This document shows positions 2,455 through 56,393 of a stretch of 64,000 nucleotides of DNA, one piece after another (within the stretch, counting starts at the first letter, position 1; each line of letters opens with the position of its first letter). The translations under genes were made by a program, and so were the position numbers. The stretch comes from Octopus vulgaris. Lineage: Eukaryota. Where the stretch lies: positions 99,138,001 through 99,202,000 of the forward strand of contig OX597820.1 of assembly GCA_951406725.2 (NCBI GenBank), read 5' to 3'. The notes under the pieces were generated by a model. The model ran no database searches. It worked only from the letters and a program-made list of their open reading frames with translations, and had not been told where the DNA came from.

Positions 2455-4880
2455 TCATGCATGACCACCTCATCCCATGTCTTCTTAGGTCTACCTCTAC
2501 CCTGGATTCCTTCAATTGTTTGGGAGTGGCACTTCTTCACACATCTCTCCTCATACCATACCAACACAAACGTCTCTCCTGCACGCCATATCCGATGCTT
2601 CTTATGTCCAACATTTCTCTCAGGGCGCTTACACTCTGTCGTGCATGCACACTGACATTACACATCTAGCGGACCATGCTAGCCTCATTTCTTTCGAGCC
2701 TATGCATGTCCTCTGCAGTCACAGCCCATGTTTCACTGCTATGAAGCATGGCAGTTCGCACACATGCGTCGTACAATCTACCTTTCACTCACGCTGATGA
2801 CAGGTCAATACCCAGAAACTTGAGTCCATGTGTATCATAGATTGAAGACAGGAAGGATGGCTTCCCTTTGCAAATACTGATAGGGCACAGAAAGTATGTC
2901 AATAGTTAGCTGGAGGAGGTGTCCTCCTGGGACTACAAGCTACAGTAGCAAATATACTTCACAATAATATAATCCCTAAAATTCAAAGAGATTAGAGATG
3001 GTCTATAACAGCAATGATTAAAATAGTAAACGCAAGGAAAAAAAGTGATGTTAATGTACTGTGGGAGAGGAAACAGTACACATTTTTGGCTTTATATCAG
3101 TTCATTCAACATTAACCTGAGGTCAATAACAAAATAAGAGAAAGAGAAGGGGTTAGTTTGAAGAATTGCATCCACAACTTTGCTTGCTCTTTTATGAGTA
3201 TATTATATTTTCTTTCGTTTTGGGGTGAGTTTACCATTTTCAGCAAAGCTCTACAAAATACACGGTAGTTTTGCTGGAGTCTTCTTATGTCTTTAAAAGA
3301 ATCTCAGGGAAGCCATCAGGTTGTGTTGCTGAGTTTAAACACATTTCATTTTTGGCTGATATTACATCACCCTTTTATGTCAATGTAATCGATGGTTGCC
3401 ACTTCATAATATAATTAATTTTGCAAATTCATAGAATCTGAGTTTCATTTTTGTATATTCTACAACTGTGACTTTTCTTCCTGCACTTTCTTGAGAGAGT
3501 TTGAGCTTGCTTTCCATGTTTTAAATGGGATTCCTTGCTGCCTTCAACATTTTGAGATCTTTATTCTTCATCTCATAGACTTCTATCTCAAAAAATGTTT
3601 TTGCATATATTGATCCTTCTCTCTGGGATAAATTTATTGCATAGAGCTTGCATTATTGACATAAAAATTTCAAGTTTTATCTTATCTTACTTCTTTCATT
3701 TCTTTTCAAGTTTTGCACAACCTTCACACTCAATGCCCATATTTTGCTACCAAGCAGCATAACATGCAACAGTACACATCATACACTCTATCTTGCATTT
3801 GAAGACAGAACTCCTTTTTGCCAAAAGAGAAGAGTTCCCATAATTTTTCTATTCTGTATTCTGGCTACTGTTACAAAGTTTCCACTTCTATTGGAAATTA
3901 GATCATATAGATAACAGAAGTTATCAACTACTTCCCAAATATTAGAATTTTGAAGGTGCTCTTATGACAAACTACTTTCATGCATTTGACAGTTTTCTTC
4001 TTTGTTAGTTTCCCTGAGTTTCAATTACATCACATGTCTACACATTGTTTATATTGCATACCCTGTGCCCTGTGCAGAATTCCTACTTACATCATTTCTG
4101 CATAGCGAGCATATCCACATTCCAAATGGTAGTAGATTCTTGTTTTGTTTTTTTTCCTGTTATAACTTTTGACTTTGCTAGGTCTACTCTCAGACATCTT
4201 GATTTTAGAAAAGAAATTCTCTATATCTTTGAAGTATTCCACTTTGAGGGCTGACCTGTCATCACTCGATCTTAACCTCATGTTATGGCCTTGAGAAGTA
4301 TAATAAACAGGAAAGGGCTGAGACCCAAGTCTTGATTAGACACCTACCTGCACACTAAATTCCTCATTGAGTTCTCATCTTGCTGATAGCAACAATGTGC
4401 AAGGTTTGCACAGCTACCACAAACTATTCGTCTACACCTAGCTTTCTTAAAGACTACCAGACTACAGAACATGGCACCCAGTCAAAGGCTTTCTCCAGAT
4501 CAATGAACAATTGATATAGTGGCTTGCATTCAGCTAAGAATTTCTCTTGTAGCTGTCCACTAGGAAGAGGGCATCAGACGTAACCTGTCATGGCACAAAT
4601 CCAAATTGTATTTCATCCAAGCTAATTCTTTTCATAATCAGTTGTTGCTAAAAACTCTTTCTGTTACTTTCATAACTTGGCCCATCAGTTTGATACTTCT
4701 GCTGTGGCCCCTTTCTAGAGCATCTCTTTTGCCCTTGTATTTTGACCCAATTGTTGATGATGATACTGCTATGACAGTTAATCGGTATGGCACCTCATTG
4801 TACTACTTTCTTGATAAATAATATGACAGTATAGGCATTTAAGAAAACTGGGTAGTTTTGATGACCAGGAACTTTGAAAT
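2455..4880 (-). mobile_element. Decayed RTE-clade LINE fragments
   Basis: Minus strand near 4480-4510 encodes the RT motif FIDLEKAFD; 2455-2800 resembles an RTE ORF C-terminus. Confidence 0.6.
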
Positions 4881-5384
4881 GATCAAGTCCACATAGATTG
4901 CAAGCATTCTAAGCAGTGACAATGACGACATCATCATCGTTTAACGTCCGCTTTCCATGTTGGACGATTTGAGTGAAGACTGGCGAACCAGATGGCTGCA
5001 CCAAGCTCCAATCTGATCTAGCAGAGTTTCTATAGCTGGATACCCTTCCTAATGCCAACCACTCTGATAGTGTAGTGGGTGCTTTTACATGCCACCGGCA
5101 CAAGGACCAGTCAGGCAGTGAGTGATTTGTAAAACCAGCAGTACAGAGTTCAATTCCACCAGTTCTTCCCATTGATACAAATTGATACTTACTTCTAGAA
5201 CTGATTTACCAAAGACATTACCTGGTGGGAGGTGACGTGCTGTTGTTTAACCCCAGATTAGCCCTGACTGAATAGGCTTAGGACCAAAAACATTCCAGGG
5301 GTAACCACACCATCTCTTCCTTTCTCAAGACAGAAGGATGGAATTTGAGGGATATTTGGCCGCTGTTTCTATTTTTATTCTTAA

Positions 5385-7521: not shown

Positions 7522-8325
7522 TTATTCGTCTTCTTCCTCCTCATCGTCATCGTCATCGTCGTCGTCGTCATCGTCCTCGTCATCATCATCATCATCATCA
7601 TCATCACTGCTATCATCTTTATCGTCATCTACGGCACCTGCATTATTACCACCATCATCCCCCTCATCATCATTATCCTCGTTGTCATTATTGTTGTCAT
7701 TTTCCTCCTCTTCCTCCTCCTCCTCCTCATCATCATCATCCTCATCACCATCATCATCGTCGTCTTCATCATCGTCGTCGTTGTTGTCAGCATTGATGGT
7801 AACACTGTCCTTGCATTGCGCCTTGCCCTTAACTACTACTGCCTCCGCTATTCCCTCTGACTCTTCCCCTTCTTCCTCCTCTTCTTCCCCACTGCTCTCT
7901 TCCCCAGCTTCACTGCTGCCCTCTTCCCCCTCTTCTGACTCTGCACCTTCTTCCCCATCGTCTTCCTCCTCTGACTCATCGTCTGACTCTATTGCCACTC
8001 TTTTTGCTGTTGCTGCAGCTAGGGCTGCTTGAGCCGCTTGAGCTGCCCGTGCTGCTTGAGCTGCTATCTGTGCCTTTGCCGCTTTGGTCCGGTTATCAGT
8101 TATTTTGGCATTTTTAACCATGGGTTTTGCTGGTGGTAGTTGTGGTTGTGAAGGTGAAGATTTTACTTGTACAGCTACTGGTGCTTGAGGTTTGACCGAT
8201 TTCTCTGGTTTCAATTTGGCAACTTTCGCTTTTGGTTGGAATTCTTCGTTTGTGGTCTTTGGTACAGGAATAATAGCCTTGGGTGATTCAACATTGACTT
8301 GCTGACTTCGGAAGATTATCATTTC
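7522..8325 (-). CDS. HMGB: HMGB terminal coding exon (Pro/Ala/Lys-rich segment followed by a long Asp/Glu tail)
   Basis: Acceptor TTTTGTTAATTGCAG, phase 0, open for 267 codons to TAA at 7522-7524, ending ...DDDEEEEDE. Confidence 0.85.
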   Translation of the reverse strand, partial: EMIIFRSQQVNVESPKAIIPVPKTTNEEFQPKAKVAKLKPEKSVKPQAPVAVQVKSSPSQPQLPPAKPMVKNAKITDNRTKAAKAQIAAQAARAAQAAQAALAAATAKRVAIESDDESEEEDDGEEGAESEEGEEGSSEAGEESSGEEEEEEGEESEGIAEAVVVKGKAQCKDSVTINADNNDDDDEDDDDDGDEDDDDEEEEEEEEENDNNNDNEDNDDEGDDGGNNAGAVDDDKDDSSDDDDDDDDDEDDDDDDDDDDDEEEEDE

Positions 8326-10604
8326 CTGCAATTAACAAAAAGATTGACTTAATAAACACACAGCAACCACCACTACCACAACCACAACAACAATAACAAT
8401 AACAACCACTATCATCACAACAACAACAATTCTAACAAGCACCACCACCACAACACCTACTATCTTAACAAGTACCATAACCATAACCACTCCACCACCA
8501 CTGTCACAACCACAACAAACACCATCATAACAATTCCTACTACACCATCATTACTACAACAACCACTTTCACTATCATCATCATCATCGTCATGAGAACC
8601 ATCATTGCCCTAACCACTATAACAATCACTTTCTCACCACCATCACCATCATAACAACAGTAAATGAAATATACATATTCTTACTTTCACTGGAGGGTTT
8701 TCCAGCTGATTTTAACCCTTAAACAGTGGACATCATTAATCAAAGTTTCACTAGAGAACAGAGGACATCATCAACTTATGTTTCAAAAGTTTTATATAGA
8801 TTTAGCCATCATTAGACAAAAGTAAATAATCTATGGCACTCTTCAACAAGGAGATTGTAAATTTTATTGGAAGAGAAACTGACAATTACTATAGTTTTTG
8901 TATTTATTTAAAGTGAAAATAAGAATAAAAATTACCGTTCAGAAAAAGAGATAATTTTTGTTTTTCTGGATGCTCGGCACACACATTCATGCAAACTCCT
9001 TACTGGCATTTAAAGGTTCATGTAATCAAGAATGAGATGGTGTGCAATATTTTAAAAAGAAGTTTCTTTTTCCATGGCTGGATGTCCTTCCTTTCACTAA
9101 TCCCTACTGTTTGCAAGCAAGGCAATATTACCCCTGGGCCAGAAAATGCTTTTACAGAACACTGGAAATGAAGGACAATAATTTACAACAGTCATGCAAT
9201 GTCAAGATAAAGAAACACAAATATACACACTTATATCATCATCATCATCGTTTAGCATCTGCTTTCCATGCTAGCATGGGTTGGACGGTTCAACTGGGGT
9301 CTGGGAAGCCAGAAGGCTGCACCAGGCCCTGTCTGATCTGGCAATGTTTCTATGGCTAGATGCCCTTCCTAACGCCCAACCACTCCGTGAGTGTAGTGGG
9401 TGCTTTTTATGTGCCAGACAAGGCTGGCAAATGGCCACGATCGGATTGGTGCTTTTTACGTGCCACCGGCATGGAGGCCAGTCGGGGCGGCGCTGGCAAC
9501 GGCCACATTCGGATGGTTCTCTTACGTGCCACCGACACTGGTATCACAGCTACAATTTCCATTGATGTTGATATACATATATACATACACACATGCACAC
9601 TCACACACACACACACAATTTACACAATGGGATTCTTTCAGTTTCCATCTGACAAATACACTCACAAGGCTTTGGTCAGCTTAGGGCTATAGTAGAAGAC
9701 AGTGGGATTGAACCCAAAACATGTGGTTGTAAAGCAAACTTCTTAACCACACAGCCATACTTGCTTTGATATAAAACTCTTGAACAAACAAAACAATTAC
9801 CTTCTCATATCGTTTTCTATCTTGGGCTGCTCTTTCTTCATATGATTTCTTCACCTCAGGTGTCGACAATTTCCACATCTTTCCCAGCAGTGTAGCCACT
9901 TCAGATACTTTTAATTCTGGTTTTTCTTCAATCAGCTTTGCTCTGTGGTCCTTACAGAAGATGAAAAACGCTGAGCTGAAAATGAAAGTAGAAATGAAAG
10001 AGAAGATGTAAGATAAATTAATGTGACTGTAATATAAGGAGCAGAGGTACATAAGGCACGGACATGGCTATATGGTTGAGAAGTTCACTTTGAAACCACA
10101 TTGTTTTGGGTTCAGTTCCATTGCACAGCACCATGGGTAAATTATTTTTTATCATAGGTAAATTATTTTTTATTATATATATATATATATATACATATAT
10201 ACTCCTTTACTTGTTTCAGTCATTTGACTGCGGCCATGCTGGAGCACCGCCCTTAGTCGAGCAACCCGACCCCGGGACTTATTCTTTGTAAGCCCAGTAC
10301 TTATTCTATCGGTCTCTTTTGCTGAACCGCTAAGTGACGGGGACATAGACACACCAGCATCGGTTGTCAAGCAATGCTAGGGGGACAAACACAGACACAC
10401 AAACATACACGCACACATATATATATATATATACTTATATACAACGGGCTTCTTTCAGTTTCCGTCTACCAAATCCACTCACAAGGCTTTGGTCGGCCCG
10501 AGGCTATAGTAGAAGACACTTGCCCAAATTGCCATGCAGTGGGACTGAACCCGGAACCATGTGGTTGGTAAGCAAGCTACTTACCACACAGCCACTCCTG
10601 CGCC

Positions 10605-31870: not shown

Positions 31871-34800
31871 CTCTCTATATAAAAAACTGAGAATGTGTGT
31901 GTGTCTGTCTATCTGTCTGTGTGTTTCCTTAAAACTTGAGAACTACACAACCGATTTCATTCAAATTTTACGCATGCCTTACTTAAGGTCCGGGGAGTGT
32001 CATCGACAAAAAAATTTTAACTTTTTCCCTAGGACGACCCCACAGCAATATATCTTCTCCACTATTTCAGTATTACGTATTAAAAGTGAAGCAAAAACAT
32101 CTCTCTTTTGTAATGCAGACACTTTCACTTTAATACTGAAACTATTAAAGTGAAAGTATTATATAACAGGGATGAACCATTAACAGTGGTCATCCATTTT
32201 GCTAGAAGAAGATCCGCTATGGTCTTATATGCTACACCACTGGTTTTCAATTCATATTAATCAAATTACTATTCAATTTTTCACCCTTATTATGTGTGTG
32301 TGTGTGTATTAGCAATTCGTATAAAATTGCATCAATGACTTGAACTTGAATAAGTGGTTTCACATAAATGGGGATAAATTAAAAAGGTTTGTTATTATTA
32401 TTATTACTGTTTGACTATTGTAATCACGTTTGTTGGTTCCTTGTCAGGGAAACGTTGTTGCGTTGCATTTGCTAAATAATTGTGAGGATGGCTACCACAT
32501 CGGTCTACTACAGCAACATCCTCAAAATCTTAATGAACGTCTCAATAAGTCAATATCCTGCATGGACTTCTACTCATACAGATTTATAACCTGAAACAAC
32601 CGCTGTAATCACTTCCAGCAGTCTCGAGAGCTGTTTCATCAATTTGCAGTCGATATGTGCGCAAAAATGGAATCAGAGAGATTGTGTTTCATCAGGTTAC
32701 ATAAAAACAAATTGCGATCTGACAGCTACATCCATCTCCGAGATGCCATCAACAATAATGCTGCTCCAACAAACATAGGAAGACTTTGCATCTTGCCTTC
32801 TACATTCACAGGAAGTCCCCGATATATGCATGAAAGAACACAGGATGCAATGACCTTTGTCCGCCATTACGGCAGGCCTGACCTATTCATAACTTTCACG
32901 TGCAATCCCAAGTGGAAGGAGATTCAGGCCGAACTCTTCTTCGGTCAAAAGCCTAAAGACAGGCATGACCTCCTCGCTCGAGTTTTCCATCTGAAGTAAA
33001 TTTCTCTCATTGAGCTCATACAAAAAGGGCAAGTCTTTGGGCCCATACAATGTGACATGTACACAATCGAGTGGCAAAAAAGGGGCATTCCACATGCTCA
33101 TATCCTGCTTTGGCTCTCAGCGAAGATCAATTCCAATGACATCGACAAGATAATCTCTGCAGAGCTTCCTGATCCAGCTTTAGACAAAGTACTATACGAA
33201 ATAGTTAAAGCAAACATGGTACATGGTCCATGTGGGCGTGGATTCAACATAAACTCACCATGCTTGAAGGACAGCATATATTCAAAAAGATTTCCAAGGA
33301 GGTTCCTACAAGAAACTCAGACAGGTGCTGATGGGTATCCATCATACAGACGCAGAAAACCAGAAGACGGAGGTTTCACAGCAACTATCGGACAGTACGA
33401 TATTAATAATAGATGGATTGTTCCATACTGCCCACTCCTGTCAAAGACTTGCAATGCCCACATCAACGTTGAGTTTTGCAACTCCGTTAAATCCATCAAG
33501 TACGTTTGCAAATATGTAAACAAGGGTTCTGACGCTGCAATGTTTGGACTTCAGCAAGCATACGGCCAGGATGAGGTGACGCATTATCAGGTGGGACGGT
33601 ACATAAGTTAGCAACGAGGCTTTCTGGCGCATCTTTGGCTTTCCAATTCACCAACGACACCCCGCCATTCAACAGCTTGCAGTGCACCTGGAAAATGGTC
33701 AAAGAGTGTACTACACCGATGCTAATGCTTCTCTGTTGGCAGAGGAACCAAGGGATAGCACACTCACTGCATTCTTCAAGCTTTGTCAAGTGGATCCATT
33801 CGCTCAAACCTTGCTGTATCCACAGATTCCATCGTACTACACTTGGAATGGAAAAAAATGGGCCCCACGGAAAGCAAGTCAAAATGTTCATGGATACCTT
33901 GGCATTAAGTTTCACACTTGCCTTGGGCGAGTATACACAGTGCATCCCACTCAACAAGAGTGCTTCTACCTTCATCTACTACTGCATGAGGTCAGAGGGC
34001 CAACGTCTTTCCAGGCCCTAAAAACCGTTCATAGACATGTCTGCACAACATACAGAGAAGCCTGCTATCGACAAGGTCTGTTAGAAGATGGTGCACAATG
34101 GGATGCAACTTTAGGAGAGGCTGCTTTATCACAATCACCTAAAAGTCTCAGGACACTATTTGCAGTATTACTACAGTCATGCGAACTGTGTGATCCGGCC
34201 ACTCTATGGCTCAAATATAGAGACAACCTGGTTGAAGACTTTCAGCGCCAAGCTCAACTGCTCTATCCTGACATGTAGGGTATCAACAATGAAATCTATA
34301 ACAAAACACTCATTGACATTGAAGACAGAATTGCTAAACTGGGTGGAAATGAATTGTCGACGTATGGCCTGCCACAAGCATTCAGATCAGGGTCAAATAG
34401 CCTTCCCACTGCTGTCATTCGTGAAACAACCTACGACACTCAAGCGCTTTCAAAGTACATTGTTGAAAATTAGCCTAAATTACTTCCGTACCAGCTGCAG
34501 GCCTACAGAACTATTCTTAACAGTGTACGCCAACGCGAGGGACGAATCTTCTTCTTCGATGCTCCTGGAGGGACAGGAAAAACATTTATTACAAAGCTTC
34601 TCCTTGCAGAAGTTAGACAGCATCAGGACATTGCAGTAGCTGTAGCCTCCTCTATCATTGCAGCTACTTTGTTACCCTGTGGCAGGACAGCACACTCAAC
34701 TTTTAAACTCCTTCTCAATTTAGCAGCATCCGAAATGCCTTCATGCAACATCAACAAAAGCTCAGATCAGGGACAAGTACTTAAAATCTGTCATCTAATT

Positions 34801-35222
34801 GTCTGGGGTGAGTGCACTATGGCTCACAAGGGAGCTTTGGAAACATTAGATGAGTCCTGAAAGACATCCGAGACTGTCAGGCTCCAATGGGAGGTGTAAC
34901 GCTTCTGTTGTCAGGTGATATCAGGCAAACTTTTCTTGCCATTCCGAAAGGCACAAGAGCAGATGAAGTCCAAGCATGCCTAAAGTCCTCTACCCTGTGG
35001 CATCAAGTTACAATCCTCAGTCTCACCACTAACATGAGAGCTCATCTACACGGCGACAAAATGTCCACAAAGTTTGCACAGGACATTTTGACACTTGGTG
35101 AAGGCAACATGCCTCATGATGCTGCAGGACAAATGGAAGAGTGGTCATTTTCCTCTGTTGTTAATTATGTAGATGACCTCATAAACAAAGTCTTTCCCAA
35201 CTTCACACAAAACTACCAAAAT
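31871..35222 (+). mobile_element. Helitron with a decayed RepHel gene (about 32490-35222), 3' truncated
   Basis: 5' TCTCTATATAAAA; Rep motifs GRPDLFITFTCNPKW, IEWQKRGIPHAHILLW and KYVCKYVNKG; PIF1-like helicase motifs DAPGGTGKTF, GRTAHSTFKL and LLSGDIRQ; stops and frameshifts. Confidence 0.92.
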
Positions 35223-35224
35223 CA

Positions 35225-35290
35225 CGGTTCGGTCCGGTCCGGTTCGGTTCGGTTCGGTTCGGTTCGGTTCGGTCCGGTCCGGTCCGGTTC
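35225..35290. repeat. (GGTYC)n pentanucleotide repeat at the Helitron/LINE junction
   Basis: About 13 units of GGTTC/GGTCC. Confidence 0.9.
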
Positions 35291-38200
35291 AGGGCCAGAG
35301 ATGAAATTGCTTGACTCTATACCTTTCAGCCTCGTCTTCCAAATCACCTCACTCGCAATTGCAACTACACTGAGAAAACAATTCTTACCTTCTTTCGAGA
35401 GGAAATCCGGTGGGTCAATTTTTATAATAGACTCAGTCGACAGCTGTACTCTTCGTGTGTTTGACAACAGTTGTTCGGCATAAACCCACACCTCTGACAC
35501 CTCCGGACATTGAACAATAGCGTGCGGGACGGTTTCCCTATCCCGCTCATATCTTGGACATGTTGGATTGCCTCGGCCACCACGCCTTGCGAGTTTGTCC
35601 CGAACAGGTAGAGCTCCTCTGTAACACTGCCATGCCAGAGACTTCTGAAAGTTGTCCAGGGTCTTCGGCCTGAATGTACGTCGGAACAGACTGGCCAGCT
35701 GATTATCATCGAGACCGAGGGTTTCCCCTAAAGTATCTTCTCATTTCGCCTCTATCAGCCCTGTATAAAAGAATGTGGTGGAACCCCCACCGCAGGCGTA
35801 GCCCGAGCGACGGAATAGCAGGATAACCTTGCAACACTCCGTAAACCATGTGCCCGGTTTCGATCTTCGATTCAACCAGGTTTCCCGTCCACCGAAACTA
35901 GTGAACTTGGGAAACATCAGTTTAGCCAGCGGAGACCACAACCGTTCACCATCCAGGTAGAGCCACAGATGCCTCAACCTCAGCGCATATCTGCGCATCA
36001 ACAGCCAAGGCATCCCTAGCCCACCCTTTAACGGTTGTTGACAGCAAGTAGAGCGTTTCACAAGCGGTTTCCAGCCCCTCCACAAAAAGTGAAAGAGATG
36101 TCTTTCCAGCTTGGTCAAGCACGAATCAGGGCAAGGAACGACGGATAGGCGGTAGGTAATGACCGATGCGATAAACACATTGGCTACCTCCGCCCTTCCT
36201 TTCAGGGATAGCCACCGCCAAGACCAGGTCTTGACTACTGCAGCCACCCTGCCCAATACCTCTATTTGGAAGTCTGGTCCAAACCAAACCTCTTGCAACT
36301 TAATCGGACCCTCTGTCCAACGTCCCACGACGCTGTCGGGAGGCATTGACTTGCCTCTCCAGGTGCTGAGCTGCAAGCCGACTGACTTTTCACGATTAAC
36401 TTTTGCTCCTGCCACCGTCTCGTAAACTTCTATGGCCTTGCCTACCCTCTGTAGGTGATCCATTTCGGTTACGATGATGGTGATGTCATCCGCGTAGGCT
36501 GACACCGATTTTCCACAACCTGGCTGTCTCGGGATGCCGCTCAATTTTCGCAGTAATGGCTCAAGAGCCATTACGTACTAAAGCGGGGAGAGCAGACACT
36601 CTTGACGAACCGAGCGCTTGATGTTGAACGGCTTCGAAAAGAAGCCGTTCACCCGAACTACCGAGTCGATGTTGTCATAAATCTGAATGATCGACCTGAG
36701 GAAGCCAAGGCCCAGGCCGAACTGTGCCAGAACGGACACCAGGTAGCGATGGTCGACCCTATCAAAAGTTTTAGATTGATCTAAATGGACCAGTGCCCCA
36801 TCCTTGCCAGAATCACTATTAAACCCCTCTAAAGTGTACCGCATAAGATGGAGTTTATTCTGAATGGTTCTGCCGGGAACGGCACATGTCTGTGCCTCCC
36901 CGATCAGACCATCCGCGACACGCGCCAATCTTTTCGATAACACTTTGGCCAAAATCTTCAACTCTGTGTTTAGCAGAGTGATGAGCCGGAAATTATCAAT
37001 ACAATCCCCCTTGTTCGGGTCCTTTCTGACAAGCGTCACTACTCCCCGGCGCACAGATCTGGGAATAAACCCGTTCTGCTGCCAGTTCGCGTAGACATCC
37101 GCCAGTAGGTGCCCGAACAGGTCTGGCATACTCTTATATAACTCATAGGGTAGACCATCCAGACCTGGCGCCTTACCCGCGCCGCAGTCCGCCATAGCCT
37201 CAGCCACATCCTCAGGCGTGATCGGCCCTTCACAGCTCTCCGCGTCTCGCCCCGATAGGCGCAGCAGCCCGTCGAGGAGGTCCGTAAAGTCCCTCCTACT
37301 GTCCGGTCCGCCGCCCCCACCGAAAAGCTGAGTGAAGTGCTCCTGAAAGTCCTCACACATCTCCTCGGGTTCGTCTATCAACTTACCTTGTTGGTTCGTC
37401 AAAGATCGAATTGTGGCATCATTACCACGTTGAGCCTCCACCACTCGGGCCCATCTCGCGGCGTTGATTCCCTCACAACCCATTGCGCGGATCCTAGCCC
37501 TGCCAATGCAGCCCATGTGTTTGGCCTCGAGGTGCTGGTTTAAAGCCAGTCTCTTGGCCGTCACCTGAGCCGCAGAGCCAGTTTTCATGGCTTCCTCTAA
37601 TTCCTTAACTAGAGTTGATCCCCTCCTAGCCTCTCTAGCCACTAATCCTGTGCTATATCTAATAGATTCGAATTTAATGGCTCGCTTGAGAGCATACCAC
37701 CATTTATTATTAATGATGGCACCAGACAGCGCCCTCTGAATCAAAGTCCTAATCCGGTCTCTGTACTCCTTAATCGCCAAAAGGGACGTATCTAAGTTTC
37801 CAATAACCGGAGCCTCTATTATATACCTTATCTATGTCAAGCTTACAGGTGACCATTTTATGATCACTGTAGCTGACCGGGTAAAACTGTGGACACTTAG
37901 CTATTTCTCTATCTGCTTTTCTAATTAGTATTCTATCTATGTAAGACCTGGAAGATCCGTCGCTACTTGACCATGTCCACAATGGAACGTTCGGAAATTC
38001 CAACCTATAAGGATCTGCTAGCTCAAAGCGTCTTAGCAGTTCCAGGAAGCCAGGGTTACCTTTTCTATCTATACGCGAGCCAACATAATCTACATCCGCC
38101 TTGTAAATTGTGTTATAGTCTCCTAGCATAACTAATGAATGTGAAGTACCAAGAAACTTCTCCAGCTCTCGAAAATACTCACTTTGCCCAGATGATGGGG

Positions 38201-38541
38201 GTGCATAAATTGCAACCAGACTGATAACTTTACCGTTACTGAACGTCAAATCCATGACGACCAGCCTACCTTCTGGATCTGAAAAAATTAACTTTTTCTC
38301 AAAAACCCGGTCTCTTTTTAATAGGACCAACACCCCACTCCCGCTGGCAGGACTAACCGGAGAGAAAAAAACTCACGTAGCCGTTAAACAGCGGGAGCAG
38401 ATCTCTTGGCCCCTCTAACTGGGTTTCTGTAGCAACAATGACATCCAAATTCCGTGACCTGATATCATTAAGGAAGCGACCCTGCATCCAGCTTGATCTC
38501 AGGCCACGCACATTTATACAACCGACGTAAATATTAGCCAT
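35291..38541 (-). pseudogene. LINE ORF2, endonuclease plus reverse transcriptase
   Basis: Pieces 38541-38353, 38333-37770, 37780-36578 and 36571-35741 carry EN and RT motifs. Confidence 0.88.
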
Positions 38542-38554
38542 GACTTACCTCATA

Positions 38555-39832
38555 TCAGTGGTTCGGCTCTTCTTCGTCTTTTTCTCTTTTATCTTTTTCA
38601 CGGGCCTGTGGAGGATTTTGACGCAGGCCCTCGTATATGTAAGGTGAGATATCCATCCTTAGAGGGCCTACGTCGTGGTAAAATTCGGACTTTATCCGTC
38701 CGTAATCCTTCTGGCCTATTCTATATATTATAAAGTCTTTTGTTGTGGTTTTTTCCACTTTTCTAACCGTTGACATTGCTGCCAAACGATTCACGAGTCT
38801 ATTATTCGATGCCTTAATGGCCATAAACGTGCTGACACTCTCCTTCCTCCTTTTCAGGTTCAATTTGTGAGGGGTGGTTTCTGTTTTTTGTTTTTCCCTC
38901 ATTTTCTTGGAAATCGTTGACCACCTCTCCTCTTTTTCATTTTCTTCACATCTTTCTTTCTTTCGTGTTTCTTTGGGTGCTGTTTCTGGTGTTCTATTCG
39001 GTGTTGCCTCTGACGATTTATCTGGTGTTGATTCTGGTGGTGATGTTTCTTGAGGTTTTGGCTGGCATTCCGCTCTTATGTGTCCCTTCATGCCACAGTT
39101 GAAGCATCTTGGCTTCCTACCCTCTACAAAGACTATTACTTTTTCTTCTTCGTTAATTCTTATGGTCTCTGGAATTTCTTCCAGAGTTTGGATTTCGGCT
39201 TGAATAGCCATTGATAGGCACTACCCCATCCAGTGCTCCTCTTCCTCTACTGAAGCCTGGAGAATATTAATCTTTTCCTCCAGTCCCAACATGACTGCTG
39301 CCACCAGACATGTGGCATCCACCTCAGGGAGGATGTTATTGATCTTAAGTTTTGAAGTTCTTCGTCCCATGTAAATTGGGAGAAGAACTATCTCCTCTGA
39401 TTTCAGTGTTTCCGATGACAATTTTCTTTCCACTTCCTCCGATCTGAATCTCACCTCCACTGCTCCAAATCTTTTGCCTCGATTTATATAAGTTATCTCC
39501 TGCCAAATTTGTTTTAAGCATTTTTCAATTTTCTTCTCCTCCACTCTTTGTATCATCTTTTTTGTTGCATTATACGTTTTGTAAATGATTCTCCTTTTGT
39601 TCACTTCCTCGGTTGTGTTCTCGTTCGATGTTATTATAATTTCTGTGCCTTCTTTCTTTAAGTTTGACATATATTTTTCCAGGTTACTTTTTTCGGTATT
39701 TAGTTTTCTCTCCTTCTTACCAGCCACTTCAGCAAATTTCTTCATTGGGGCTGCGTTCATTTTAGGCGATACTGCCGGTGAGTTTCCTTCACCTGACTCA
39801 GGTGAGCATGGAGTGTGAGTTTCCATTTCCAC
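38555..39832 (-). pseudogene. LINE ORF1, gag-like with a zinc knuckle
   Basis: Two ORF-track pieces in the same frame separated by TAG at 39221; CX2CX4HX4C motif. Confidence 0.8.
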
Positions 39833-40299
39833 AAAGAATTTTGGTTTAAAAAGCCTTTCACGAAAATTGGCTTAAACAAGCCTTTCACAAAATTTGGCTT
39901 AACAAGCCTTTCGCACAGGTTTATATTACAGCTACACAATAATACCCCGCGGGGGAGGGGGGATTTCAACACGTAGCTTTCAAACGAAGGCAAATAACAG
40001 TTTTCGACAACAAAGAACAACAAAATTTACAGTAACAATAACGAATTAACGTACCGATAGTAAAATTCCAAACAACAGAGTAACGTGGTGACAATTCGAC
40101 TTCCCCCATGATTAAGTAATGGGGATGACTAGGCTTAAATAAGAAATTAAAATGATTGACTGGAGAACGTTTACTTAATCATGCAAATAATAGCTTATGG
40201 GAATATTCCATTATGTACTGATATACTACTATAACCAAGGAAATTTAAATTTCAGACCGATGGTAAAAGTTCTATTTCTTAAAAAATAATAATGCTAAA

Positions 40300-47842: not shown

Positions 47843-48190
47843 ATTGCATGGCACTTTGGGCAAGTGTCTTCTACTATAGCCTTGGGCCGACCAAAGCCTT
47901 GTGAGTGGATTTCGTAGATGGAAACTGAAAGAAGCCTGTCGTATATATGTATATGTATATATGTGTGCATGTATGTTTGTATGTCTGTGTTTGTCCCCCC
48001 AACATCGCTTGACAACCGATGCTGATGTGTTTATGTCCCCGTCACTTAGCGGTTTGGCAAAAGAGACTGATAGAATAAGTACTGGGCTTACAAAGACTAA
48101 GTCCCGGGGTCGAGTTGCTCGATTAAAGGTGGTGCTCCAGCATGGCCACAGTCAAATGACTGAAACAAGTAAAAGAAAGAAAGAGAAAGA
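47843..48190 (+). mobile_element. SINE family A, 5' truncated
   Basis: Similar to the other copies. Confidence 0.8.
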
Positions 48191-48357
48191 GATTATTTAC
48201 ATTTGACGGATATTTGTCCTCATCTTGTTTCTTGTTAACATGTTTTGGCTCATATACCCTCCAAGCCTTCATCAGGTGTCTTGGGGAAACTTCCAGCCTG
48301 GTTTCTCATTCCTAAGGTAATTTTCGATGTTGTTATTATTATTATTATTATTATTCA

Positions 48358-48430
48358 GGTCACTGCCTAGAATCGAACTCGGAATCTTGGGGTTAGTAGC
48401 CCGTGCTCTTAACCACTACGCCATATGCCC
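48358..48430 (-). pseudogene. tRNA-derived head (not a functional tRNA)
   Basis: GGGCATATGGCGTAGTGGTTAAGAGCACGGGCTACTAACCCCAAGATTCCGAGTTCGATTCTAGG has A and B boxes plus anticodon and T arms, but a poor acceptor stem. Confidence 0.65.
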
Positions 48431-48601
48431 ACAGACATATGGTAGCCTGTGCTCTTAACTACTATGGGCATATGGCGTAGTAGTTAAGAGTGCAGGCTAC
48501 TAACCCCAAGATTCCGAGTCCGATTCTAGGCATTGACCTGAATAATAATAATATCAAAAATTACCTTAGGAATGAGAAACCAGGTTCGAAATTTCTCCAA
48601 G

Positions 48602-48645
48602 ACACCTGATGAAGGCTGGAGGGTTTATCAGCCGAAACATTGTGT
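48602..48645 (+). ncRNA. Minimal type I hammerhead ribozyme motif (PLE type)
   Basis: ACAC-CTGATGA-A-GGCTG[10 nt]CAGCC-GAAA-CATT-GTGT. Confidence 0.7.
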
Positions 48646-49186
48646 TAACAACAAAGATGAGGACAAATATCTGTCAAATGTAAATAATGTAAATAATGTA
48701 CATAATTCCTCATCCCTTAAATATAGAACTGTATTTAATGCACTGCTATGCAGATTTCCACTAGTCACATGTCTCTTAAGATCACAGTCCATATGGGTAT
48801 CGGGTTGATAATCATCCTGGATTCATTTCTTCAGGCAATATAACATTGATGGATGTTTAACAGAGGGTTGTTTATCTCTTTTGACCAATGCAAAGGTTGA
48901 TTGAGTTATGTGGGTATTTCCGTGTGTATTTGGTGGGGAGGTGGGGAAGGTGATGGAAAGAGAGGAGGAATAGTAGTTATATGCGGATGGAGGTGTGTAT
49001 GGTGATGGTTTAAGAACTGCATCCAGCTCCAGTGTCTGATTTGGCATGGTTGTTTAGCTGAATGCCCTACCTTGTGCCAACCACTTTACAGTGTTTACTG
49101 CGTGCTTTTTTCATGCTACCAGCTGTAATGGCATTGCCATGCAGCTAAGCAAGACTATGAACCTCAGAGTTGGTGGGAGCGCTTCA

Positions 49187-54139: not shown

Positions 54140-55340
54140 CGGGAAGCTTTATGAAAATAGACAAAAGACGAAGGCAGGTGGAAAACAAACAAACAATTGT
54201 ATTAGTATGGCGCTCAGGAAATATAAATAAAACAAGTCTTTAACGTTTCGAGCCTACGCTCTTCAACAGAAAGATACACAGAGAGAGAAAAAAACAGAAA
54301 GAAGGAGAGAAAAAAAATGCATGCAGTAACTAACGAATCAACATGGCGATCTGATTTCGGCCAGAAGTCAAAGATCAAACATGAGACGCGAGAGCGAAAT
54401 TAGGGGAGATAATAGGGTTGAATGACCAGCTCCAACATAAGGGTGTGTGTGTGTGTGTGTGTGTGTATGAGAGAGTATTAGTGCGTATGAGAGGTCTGGA
54501 CGTGTGTATGTATAGGGTTGGTGTATGTATTAGTATGTATAAGGGTGTGTGTGTGTGTGTGTGTGAGAGAGTATTAGTGCGTATGAGAGGTCTGGACGTG
54601 TGTATGTATAGGGTGGGTGTATGTATTAGTATGTATTAGTTGGTGTATGTATTAGTATGGCACATCATATATGATGTGATGTGTAAAGTCGTGTGGTGTA
54701 GTGTGGAGAGAGAAGAGGGGAGGGGAGGGAGGTGAGAAGAGGGGAGGGGGAGAGAGAGGGGGAGAAGGAAGGGGAGGAGGAGGGGAGGAGGAAAGAGGGA
54801 GAGGGGGAGAGAGAAGGGGAAAAGGGAAGGAGGGAGGGAGAAAGAGGGAAGAAGGGAAGGGGAGTAGGGGTGAAAGGATGAAGGACTGAAGTAGTAGGGG
54901 TCGAGGGGAAAGGTAGGTGAGGAGGGGGGAGAGGGGGTTAGATGAGGAAGGGGGGAGAGTTGAGACCAAATGGCGTATAAGAGCGAAGAGAGAAGATTAA
55001 TTCCTGTTCACGGCGCAAACGGGAATCCGGATGGCCTCTGTGTAAGGACAAACCGAACACAGATAGGTGTTGCAAGGAGTGACCGGTGACGCGGAAATGG
55101 CGTGAGACCGGTGTGTCGTTCGCAAGGTGGATGTCACGAAGGTGTTCCGCGAACCGGTCAGCCAAGCGGCGTCCCGTTTGTCCGATGTACAAGGAATGGC
55201 AGAGAGAGCAAGAGACGCAATAGATAATATTGCTGGAGGTGCAGGTGAAGGAGTGGATGATGGGATAGGGTCGATGATGGATGCTAGTGAGGAGGGTGGT
55301 GTTGGAGAGGTAAGGGCAAGTGCGGCAACGTGGGCGGGAA
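54138..55340 (-). mobile_element. Penelope-like retroelement 3' fragment (GIY-YIG endonuclease, 3' region and hammerhead)
   Basis: Minus-strand frame reads RPRCRTCP...FTCTSSNIIYCVSCSLCHSLYIGQTGRRLADRFAEH...REQELIFSLRSYTPFGLN. Confidence 0.88.
54237..54274 (-). ncRNA. Minimal hammerhead ribozyme motif with a variant core
   Basis: TCTTT-CTGTTGA-A-GAGC[GTAG]GCTC-GAAA-CGTT-AAAGA, with palindromic ACGT as stem III. Confidence 0.65.
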
Positions 55341-55731
55341 CTAGCAGCATAGCCCGGCGTTGCCCGGGTATGTAAGAGCCCCTAGTAGGCAACGACTAAT
55401 CCCAATCTAGTTCTTTCCCTCTAGGGAACGAAGGCGCATGTGTAGGTTGCAATGTATTCTCTTCACTCGAATACTTCTATGTATACGATGTTCCTAGCTG
55501 TCTCCCGACAGAAAATGTGTTGCATATAAAAAGCTTAGATTCTCGACCCCATGTCGAATTTAACGATTTTTTCAGAACTGGGGAAATTTTTCAAAATTTT
55601 TGCTGCGTTAGTTTTGAATTATGACATTGGGCTATGTGTGTGTCAAGTTTCATCAGAATCGGTTGAAAGCCGTGGTCAGTGTGAAGGTACAACCTGACAG
55701 CCACACAAACTGCCGTTTATATATATAGAGA
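55341..55731 (-). mobile_element. Complete non-autonomous Helitron
   Basis: A|TCTCTATATATATAAA...CCCGGGCAACGCCGGG hairpin...GCTAG|T. Confidence 0.82.
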
Positions 55732-56100: not shown

Positions 56101-56393
56101 ATATATATATATATATATATATATAGGTATAAAAATTATATATAAAAAGGGACAAGAACGTGAAATACACAAAGAGATGACACAAAAAATGGACGGGTCA
56201 TTCAAAGCCTTTAATCTTCAGTCAGGAACCGGATCATCACAGCAAATTTCGGCTGATTTGTATATATATATATATATATGTATATATATACGTATATATG
56301 TATATCTATATATATATATATATGTATGTATGTATATATATATATATATATATGCACATGTATATATGTATATACAAACATACATATATATAC

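Follow-up and report, generated by a model that had tools for sequence, protein, structure and literature searches.

The paired repeat at positions 48192-48733 of the window (the whole 64,000-nucleotide stretch of Octopus vulgaris DNA analysed here) is, with a probability of about 0.95, the pseudo-LTR of an autonomous Penelope/Poseidon-type element. The repeat opens with a start signal of tRNA origin, so that RNA polymerase III (Pol III) probably transcribes the entire element. The original prediction had described a separate non-autonomous SINE or retrozyme that uses Penelope-like machinery. The machinery was correctly recognized, as the unit is contiguous with the ORF of a Penelope-like element (PLE), but the separate family was not, as the unit is the terminal repeat of that autonomous PLE and holds its start codon.

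The repeat unit, its inverted partner and its family

The predicted anatomy, i.e. a tRNA-like head, (AAT)n, a minimal hammerhead, a 3' end and a second, inverted copy with the heads 35 bp apart, was seen both in the sequence and in a repeat search, where the inverted arms (48192-48434 and 48462-48688) exhibited 83-91% complementarity. Two details of the prediction had to be amended. The A and B boxes quoted as perfect are so in the left copy, but each box of the right copy carries a single change, and the AATGTAAAT repeat described as the end of the unit is present but is an in-frame coding repeat, after which a further ~30 nt lead to the fixed 3' end. The features are collected in Table 1. 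Positions denoted r take the first base of the tRNA-like head as zero (r0 is 48466 in the right copy).

Table 1. Coordinates of the repeat unit, its parts and its inverted partner in the window.
Feature	Position	Strand	Remark
Complete pseudo-LTR of Penelope/Poseidon-type element, right copy (about 95% probable)	48466..48733	+	tRNA-derived head through fixed 3' end, with tail
tRNA-derived head, right copy	48466..48539	+	best match tRNA-Arg; cloverleaf fold lost
A box, right copy	48473..48483	+	one change relative to family majority
B box, right copy	48516..48527	+	one change relative to family majority
(AAT)n tract	48541..48555	+	length differs greatly among copies
First ~54-55 codons of PLE frame	48572..48733	+	first Met 5' of hammerhead; frame passes through ribozyme; aligns to P0019 N-terminus
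Minimal type I hammerhead, right copy	48602..48645	+	predicted cut after 48641; stem-III palindrome decayed
9-nt repeat	48677..48706	+	in frame, Asn-Val-Asn codons
Optional PLE tail	48692..48733	+	missing from most inverted partner arms
Head-to-head junction	48431..48465	.	short direct piece and short inverted piece of head
Left copy, tail-less inverted pseudo-LTR	48192..48430	-	A and B boxes intact; last ~45 nt missing
Decayed hammerhead, left copy	48238..48279	-	GAAA>AAAA plus 3-nt loss

Both copies are decayed. They probably stem from the same insertion event, which fits the three private changes that the two arms have in common; among 33 loci with two head-bearing units, the shared non-CpG changes averaged 1.9 between paired units vs 0.4 between loci. 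The pieces found in the 35-bp junction are likely products of template switches. The pair sits exactly where another high-copy repeat of tRNA type (47850-48191) finishes in an A-rich 3' end, and this 3' end recurs about ten other times within the window.

The head was compared with 25 distinct tRNA sequences, representing six isotypes, from the same genome. Two tRNA-Arg genes matched the family majority best, at 49 of 74 nt (z 7.4 and 6.5), an assignment that is provisional because the comparison set held only six isotypes. The resulting identity (66% over 74 nt) lies above the SINEBase limit for tRNA-likeness (at least 60% over 60 nt), and the unit is also short and dispersed in thousands of copies, where SINEBase asks for at least 100. 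The head scored 9.8 bits against a tRNA profile (E 0.051). ARAGORN and Rfam called no tRNA in the head at this locus, nor at 30 (ARAGORN) and ten (Rfam) further head loci, and the sole matches on the locus and the head loci were to a hairpin and to simple repeats.

The hammerhead at 48602-48645 reads as first described, the decay of its left counterpart is accompanied by the additional 3-nt loss, and the stem III foreseen for the consensus (ACGT) is that of the family majority, the right copy itself reading ACAT. Set against the criteria for minimal type I hammerheads in the accessible text of PMC4209133, the ribozyme has a 4-bp stem I, a 5-6-bp stem II and an extra base between 9 and 10.1, and it lacks helix III. 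The family majority carries the full set, comprising the core (CUGANGA...GAAA..UH), stems I and II, and a palindromic stem III remnant. Of 254 copies that span the ribozyme, 130 have an intact core and 85 have both the core and ACGT. Rfam called no hammerhead at the locus or at the ten head loci. Near the predicted cut site, eight copy ends were found at r197-211 compared with 11 at r156-196 (139 arms; P = 0.11), and a small cluster at r196-199 (5/98) includes two ends that lie on a local palindrome. Cleavage would require a dimer or assistance by protein, and insertion need not use it. Elsewhere in the window, at 56190-56255 (-), hammerhead-like pieces occur in reversed order (CCGAAA before CTGAAGA).

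The genome (2.8 Gb in 227 contigs) was searched with the unit, giving 5,078 first-look candidates, of which 40 were scored, the best at 85-92%. Exact matches to the 33-nt 3' end, the head and a 19-nt body motif numbered 2,763, 2,528 and 10,800 genome-wide, with no match in the same genome for any of the three reversed-motif controls, so the unit is not due to chance. Head and hammerhead are joined across the family rather than only at this locus, in line with the original prediction: an AAT-type tract follows the head in all 30 head-anchored copies, 29 of them extend into the hammerhead body, and the family majority has an intact core. A free-standing SINE with the same head and a different tail was not clearly seen in any of these 30 copies; one (L203) ends after the tract.

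The 3' end of the unit is fixed across copies, which are dispersed singles or inverted pairs, with one direct tandem pair (L007) among the 30 best loci. An inverted upstream arm is present in 56 of 100 copies, and 52 of these 56 arms end at r247-265, the main arms ending at r291. Two loci on contig C1, 0.86 Mb apart (L210 and L211), are 98% identical over ~3 kb and contain a palindromic copy of the element. They were considered as a re-mobilised palindromic unit and rejected as such, because their shared flanks identify a segmental duplication. Pieces of the PLE family are present in contigs of four organisms, which are uninformative on strand, start and level; no relatives of the element were found in the viral contigs searched.

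Linkage to an autonomous ORF

When an RT fragment from Anolis was searched against the genome, the 30 best loci all belonged to one and the same PLE family, sister Poseidon families not being among them, and it is this family that the unit terminates. Sequence upstream of the unit was shared in five of the 30 best loci, one of them with a decayed RT frame, and a genome search with that RT-bearing sequence gave 2,706 candidates. In 19 of 30 ORF-anchored loci the end of the ORF was reached; the head follows it directly in 17 of the 19 and is deleted in two. The motif spanning the ORF end and the head has 395 exact matches genome-wide, so ORF-linked copies are not rare chimeras. At the other side, 14 of 30 loci have the hammerhead-and-tail part of the unit ahead of the ORF start.

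The majority monomer of 2,673 nt runs from the head through (AAT)n, start codon, hammerhead, tail, the rest of the frame and the stop to the next head, which begins 29 nt 3' of the stop. From a Met at r127, 5' of the hammerhead, the frame is open for 838 aa. The protein is 57% identical to P0019 over 830 aa, with the N-terminus aligned through the ribozyme codons, and 37% identical over 812 aa to the Anolis protein P0065 (836 aa). As both the frame and the P0019 alignment run through the ribozyme, the 3' half of the unit is coding and its 9-nt repeat represents three codons. Pfam placed RVT_1 above cut-off in the PLE frame. A GIY-YIG-type endonuclease with a divergent motif appears to be present at the C-terminus, since the BLASTP match to P0065 spans its C-terminal domain (query residues 34-833); in a decayed copy, Pfam gave no hit to this endonuclease. 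The Penelope/Poseidon assignment is by pairwise similarity.

It is very improbable that the unit is instead a non-autonomous SINE or retrozyme in its own right, dependent on borrowed PLE enzymes such as those of a GIY-YIG element 6 kb away. It has the look of a SINE, being short, dispersed and tRNA-like in its head, and elements combining Pol III promoters and hammerheads exist in Schistosoma according to the available part of a review (PMC6765202). However, the unit adjoins an autonomous ORF and encodes part of its protein, which makes it integral to an autonomous element rather than a family apart from its partner. Retrozymes are head-to-tail, non-coding tandem units; the present copies are dispersed, hold an ORF start, and form a direct tandem only once in the 30 best loci.

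The neighbouring GIY-YIG element at 54938-55381, which had been put forward as the source of the machinery, was rejected as a partner. It belongs to a separate family with 27% protein identity to ours and a different hammerhead, the B-box motif was not found in it, and no DNA similarity between the two families was found, barring one copy of ours inserted in a member of the other (L259). The sequence at 54230-55381 (-) is the 3' part of this C-rich, very abundant and young PLE family (16,989 candidates), which has a Zn-finger linker, GIY-YIG, frames that stay open for as many as ~1,100 aa, a minimal hammerhead of its own near 54273 (core CUGUUGA), and a 96-nt tandem unit in the 3' UTR.

The window contains further features. 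A near full-length, decayed LINE with ORF1 and its zinc knuckle, endonuclease and RT, as judged on ORF translations, lies at 35222-39871 (-), and an interstitial telomere-like (CCCTAA)n tract of 11 copies at 2271-2332. Broken Rep/helicase frames at 32595-35200 (+) are presumably Helitron-like, as judged by motifs in the translation, and we take 7522-8331 and 9687-10067 (-), with an HMG-box-like segment and a frame that is long, acidic and of low complexity, to be likely host exons.

Copy ends, terminators and the reading by Pol III

We consider it rather probable that Pol III uses the head in some form. A fuller model, to which we give somewhat better than even odds, combines a Pol III master copy with internal RT starts that yield short as well as ORF-bearing copies. 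On a master copy with a head 5' of the ORF, Pol III would start ~2-7 nt before the head and then read through an ORF free of T4 terminators. By analogy with anole Poseidon, whose RT initiates internally in vitro at two sites bounding the tail (PMC11167929, available part), the RT of the element would have two alternative start sites, separated by ~40 nt, at the pseudo-LTR end. A start in the upstream repeat would give a ~290-nt cDNA reaching the RNA 5' end and hence a SINE-like copy with the head at its beginning, and a start in the downstream repeat would give ORF-bearing copies, while fold-back or second priming would add the tail-less inverted arm. One ORF-bearing copy (L179), whose first sequence is the head of the 5' repeat, agrees with such reverse transcription up to the head.

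The 5' ends were mapped in two samples. In the first (the first 100 exact 3'-end matches on contig C1), 32 of the 40 copies that reach r+19 end within -20..+19 and eight (nine in the first mapping) run into the ORF side; the density of ends at the boundary is 2.0%/nt, vs 0.13-0.24%/nt in the other intervals computed. The second, largely separate but partially overlapping sample (98 arms; 99 loci were used among the first 100 matches to the body motif) had 24 of 31 copies ending at the boundary and a density of 1.9%/nt vs 0.2-0.4%/nt, the AAT tract excepted. That tract gathers many apparent ends too (31/68 in the second sample), so local sequence alone can gather ends. Among head-anchored copies, 24 of 30 begin at -7..+5.

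An imperfect palindrome is located exactly at the head boundary and, together with the palindromes known from rotifers, it provides a rival cause for the pile-up of 5' ends. The element could be a Poseidon PLE transcribed by Pol II or by read-through that passively captured a tRNA or SINE fragment in its 3' UTR, with the palindrome or a structured head halting RT and promoting fold-back. We regard this as unlikely, if still the weightiest of the alternatives. Fold-back at the junction was indeed seen in 10 of 30 head-anchored copies, the majority showing none, and palindromic pseudo-LTR 5' ends with self-priming are described in the available text of PMC3846280. However, many copies end at -2..-7, beyond the hairpin loop, where they are joined to unrelated flanks or distant inverted pieces; a structural block should, as we reason, stop RT 3' of the stem. 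Moreover, the majority sequence has kept perfect A and B boxes though its cloverleaf is unrecognised, which counts against passive capture.

Runs of T4 are absent from the 2,673-nt sense strand, with P = 0.0045 by base shuffle, 0.05 with synonymous codons and 0.09 under a dinucleotide model; the borderline values under the last two controls suit passive capture. Most other PLE coding stretches are T4-rich, which argues against it: in 19 of them T4 was above expectation in 12, below in four and zero in three, our sequence being a majority and the comparators mostly single copies. The three comparators at zero also make the absence of T4 modest evidence for transcription by Pol III, and two T4-free comparators, L327 (expected 1.0) and L333 (expected 2.2), have no tRNA-like head. 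Left out of the count were duplicates (L287, L325) and short or weak matches (L290, L291, L292, L332, L335). The decayed LINE of the window, serving as a T-run control, has 15 T4 runs in 4,131 nt.

The third T4-free comparator, L282, is a perfect tandem PLE in a public metagenome contig (2,791-nt unit, intact frame of ~900 codons). Between its stop and its hammerhead, at 2018-2227 and 4809-5018, lie AAT repeats and sequence resembling A and B boxes. Its RT/EN coding stretch is T4-free, but two T4 runs lie shortly 3' of the hammerhead; the tRNA profile gave 6.2 bits (E 0.68) and Rfam no tRNA hit. The same tRNA-promoter design may have arisen again in this distant PLE, and we offer it as a weak candidate for an independent second case. 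Eukaryotic-type PLE sequences with hammerheads were also seen in assemblies labelled as bacterial or archaeal MAGs (L323-L335), probably reflecting host or eukaryote contamination.

Head-start copies outnumber ORF-linked copies by ~3-4 to 1 (32:8 and 24:7 in the two samples; 1,408 vs 395 motif matches), and every short copy holds the promoter, the ribozyme and both RT start sites. This would suit a reading where full-length elements depend on Pol II or read-through and the short copies are themselves Pol III-active sources, i.e. a nascent PLE-driven SINE identical to its parent. The cis-acting pseudo-LTRs of PLEs are, in the available part of PMC3846280, able to mobilise in trans. Nevertheless, we find this reading quite improbable. 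Three linked variants that define a subfamily occur in equal proportions in the ORF-linked and head-start copies compared (83 and 103 copies; 29/83 vs 35/103, 14/68 vs 18/89 and 11/65 vs 11/85), non-CpG divergence is similar (6.1% in ORF-linked and 5.2% in head-start copies), and no variant private to short copies was found among them. As judged by the subfamily markers that they share, short and ORF-linked copies are one lineage and a separate SINE lineage is absent. In addition, the anole RT requires sequence 3' of the start site (the first 172 nt of the ORF), and this sequence is missing from short copies; the one repeated short unit that was checked proved to be the segmental duplication mentioned above; and a T4-free ORF would be left unexplained.

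B boxes are intact in 61 of 102 head-start copies vs 42 of 83 ORF-linked copies (P = 0.24), and their CpG decay is alike in both groups. An initial signal of selection for intact B boxes in head-start copies (P = 0.0002) vanished in the larger sample, from which query-biased loci were removed and to which 60 junction loci were added. The lack of such a signal is compatible with a passively captured head and counts against the Pol III model, as does the fact that the head is kept in only two of 14 upstream repeats. Two published views are also at odds with the Pol III model, as far as the accessible texts go: Pol III is held to be too weakly processive for autonomous elements (Kojima 2024, PMC10886601), and D. 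virilis Penelope uses a LINE-like internal promoter (PMC2377424).

The strongest form of the Pol III model is an autonomous coding retrotransposon transcribed by Pol III end to end, which has purged terminators from its 2.5-kb ORF and sheds thousands of SINE-like copies, and this would show a SINE in the act of arising from a Penelope-like parent. We put this forward tentatively, at rather less than even odds. SINEs are defined as Pol III-transcribed, non-coding and LINE-driven, and the accessible text of the 2024 paper assigns autonomous partners to Pol II (PMC10886601). A coding retroelement on a tRNA promoter would, if true, break this division of polymerases between SINEs and autonomous elements and provide one route by which an autonomous parent directly yields SINE-like families. 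It would also be a clean system for questions on PLEs (RNA start, translation of uncapped RNA, the role of the hammerhead), because the start site is predictable and recorded in thousands of copies. Repeat annotators, for their part, will divide this one family into 'tRNA SINE' and 'Penelope'.

Comparison with known systems

The octopus OR1, OR2 and OK SINEs were reportedly traced to tRNA-Arg by Ohshima and Okada in 1994. Set beside our unit by description only, they likewise have a tRNA-derived head, possibly of the same isotype; unlike in OR1 and OR2 (cited as CORE-SINEs), our head leads into (AAT)n and coding sequence of the PLE. Catalogues such as Repbase, Dfam or SINEBase may already list the short form as a SINE. 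Neither hammerheads nor ribozymes are mentioned in the main text of a 2026 annotation of octopus repeats, and no sequence match to the unit was found in a supplement of PMC13282606.

The inverted pair, the optional tail and the ribozyme are already published for PLEs. What is apparently new is the tRNA-derived A/B-box promoter in an autonomous PLE, which is in no paper found; the literature covered, outside which lie most subscription papers and Repbase Reports, gave no autonomous PLE with a tRNA-derived or Pol III promoter. The likenesses and differences below refer to the available parts of the cited sources.

Among elements with Pol III-type promoters, the SINE-like Sm-alpha and Sj-alpha of Schistosoma (PMC6765202) resemble our unit in having such a promoter followed by a hammerhead. 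They differ in being non-coding and tandem, with ORF continuity undescribed in the accessible text, whereas ours is part of an autonomous element. The TRIMp3 elements Cassandra, Helenus and Ajax (Kojima 2024, PMC10886601) likewise hold a small-RNA-derived Pol III promoter inside the terminal repeat; their promoters (tRNA or 5S) are proposed to have arisen by SINE insertion, and their autonomous partners must, according to the same paper, use Pol II. However, they are non-autonomous, 0.3-1.3 kb long and of LTR type, with true LTRs, PBS, PPT and TSD and no ORF, as opposed to an autonomous 2.7-kb PLE with an ORF and PLE-type ends. Animal non-LTR retrozymes (bioRxiv 10.64898/2026.07.22.740005; PMC7761336) share the type I hammerhead, which in their case is derived from PLE pseudo-LTRs, but are tandem and described as promoter-less and non-coding; the words 'tRNA' and 'promoter' have no occurrence in the retrozyme preprint (bioRxiv 10.64898/2026.07.22.740005).

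The hammerhead itself is like the minimal ones known from PLEs of metazoans (Cervera and De la Pena 2014, PMC4209133), with a short stem I, a long stem II, an extra base between 9 and 10.1, G10.1-C11.1 and a palindromic 15.2-16.2, although a tRNA head is unreported in the text available. In the same paper, opposite-strand pairs of minimal hammerheads 100-700 bp apart are regarded as probably truncated PLEs. Inverted 5' copies and a 30-40-bp tail are known in PLEs (Craig et al. preprint; PMC3846280). Adineta vaga Pen2a and Pen3a and D. virilis Penelope (PMC3846280, PMC2377424) also have head-to-head inverted pseudo-LTRs with a 31-37-bp tail, first codons within the pseudo-LTR, an internal promoter and palindromic 5' ends. 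Their promoters are, unlike ours, TATA/Inr or LINE-like (DPE), and tRNA is nowhere mentioned in the accessible text on rotifer PLEs with palindromic pseudo-LTR 5' ends (PMC3846280).

For the Poseidon element of Anolis carolinensis, the part available (Frangieh et al. 2024, PMC11167929) mentions neither a head of tRNA origin nor a Pol III promoter, and the promoter is presumed to lie in the pseudo-LTR. In other respects our element is like Poseidon: a single ORF of ~840 aa encodes RT and a C-terminal endonuclease in a pLTR-ORF-pLTR arrangement, the ORF start overlaps the hammerhead, and there are two 3' ends 30-40 nt apart (the tail). In the anole element the ORF likewise starts at the hammerhead, and protein-assisted cleavage is not needed for insertion (PMC11167929).
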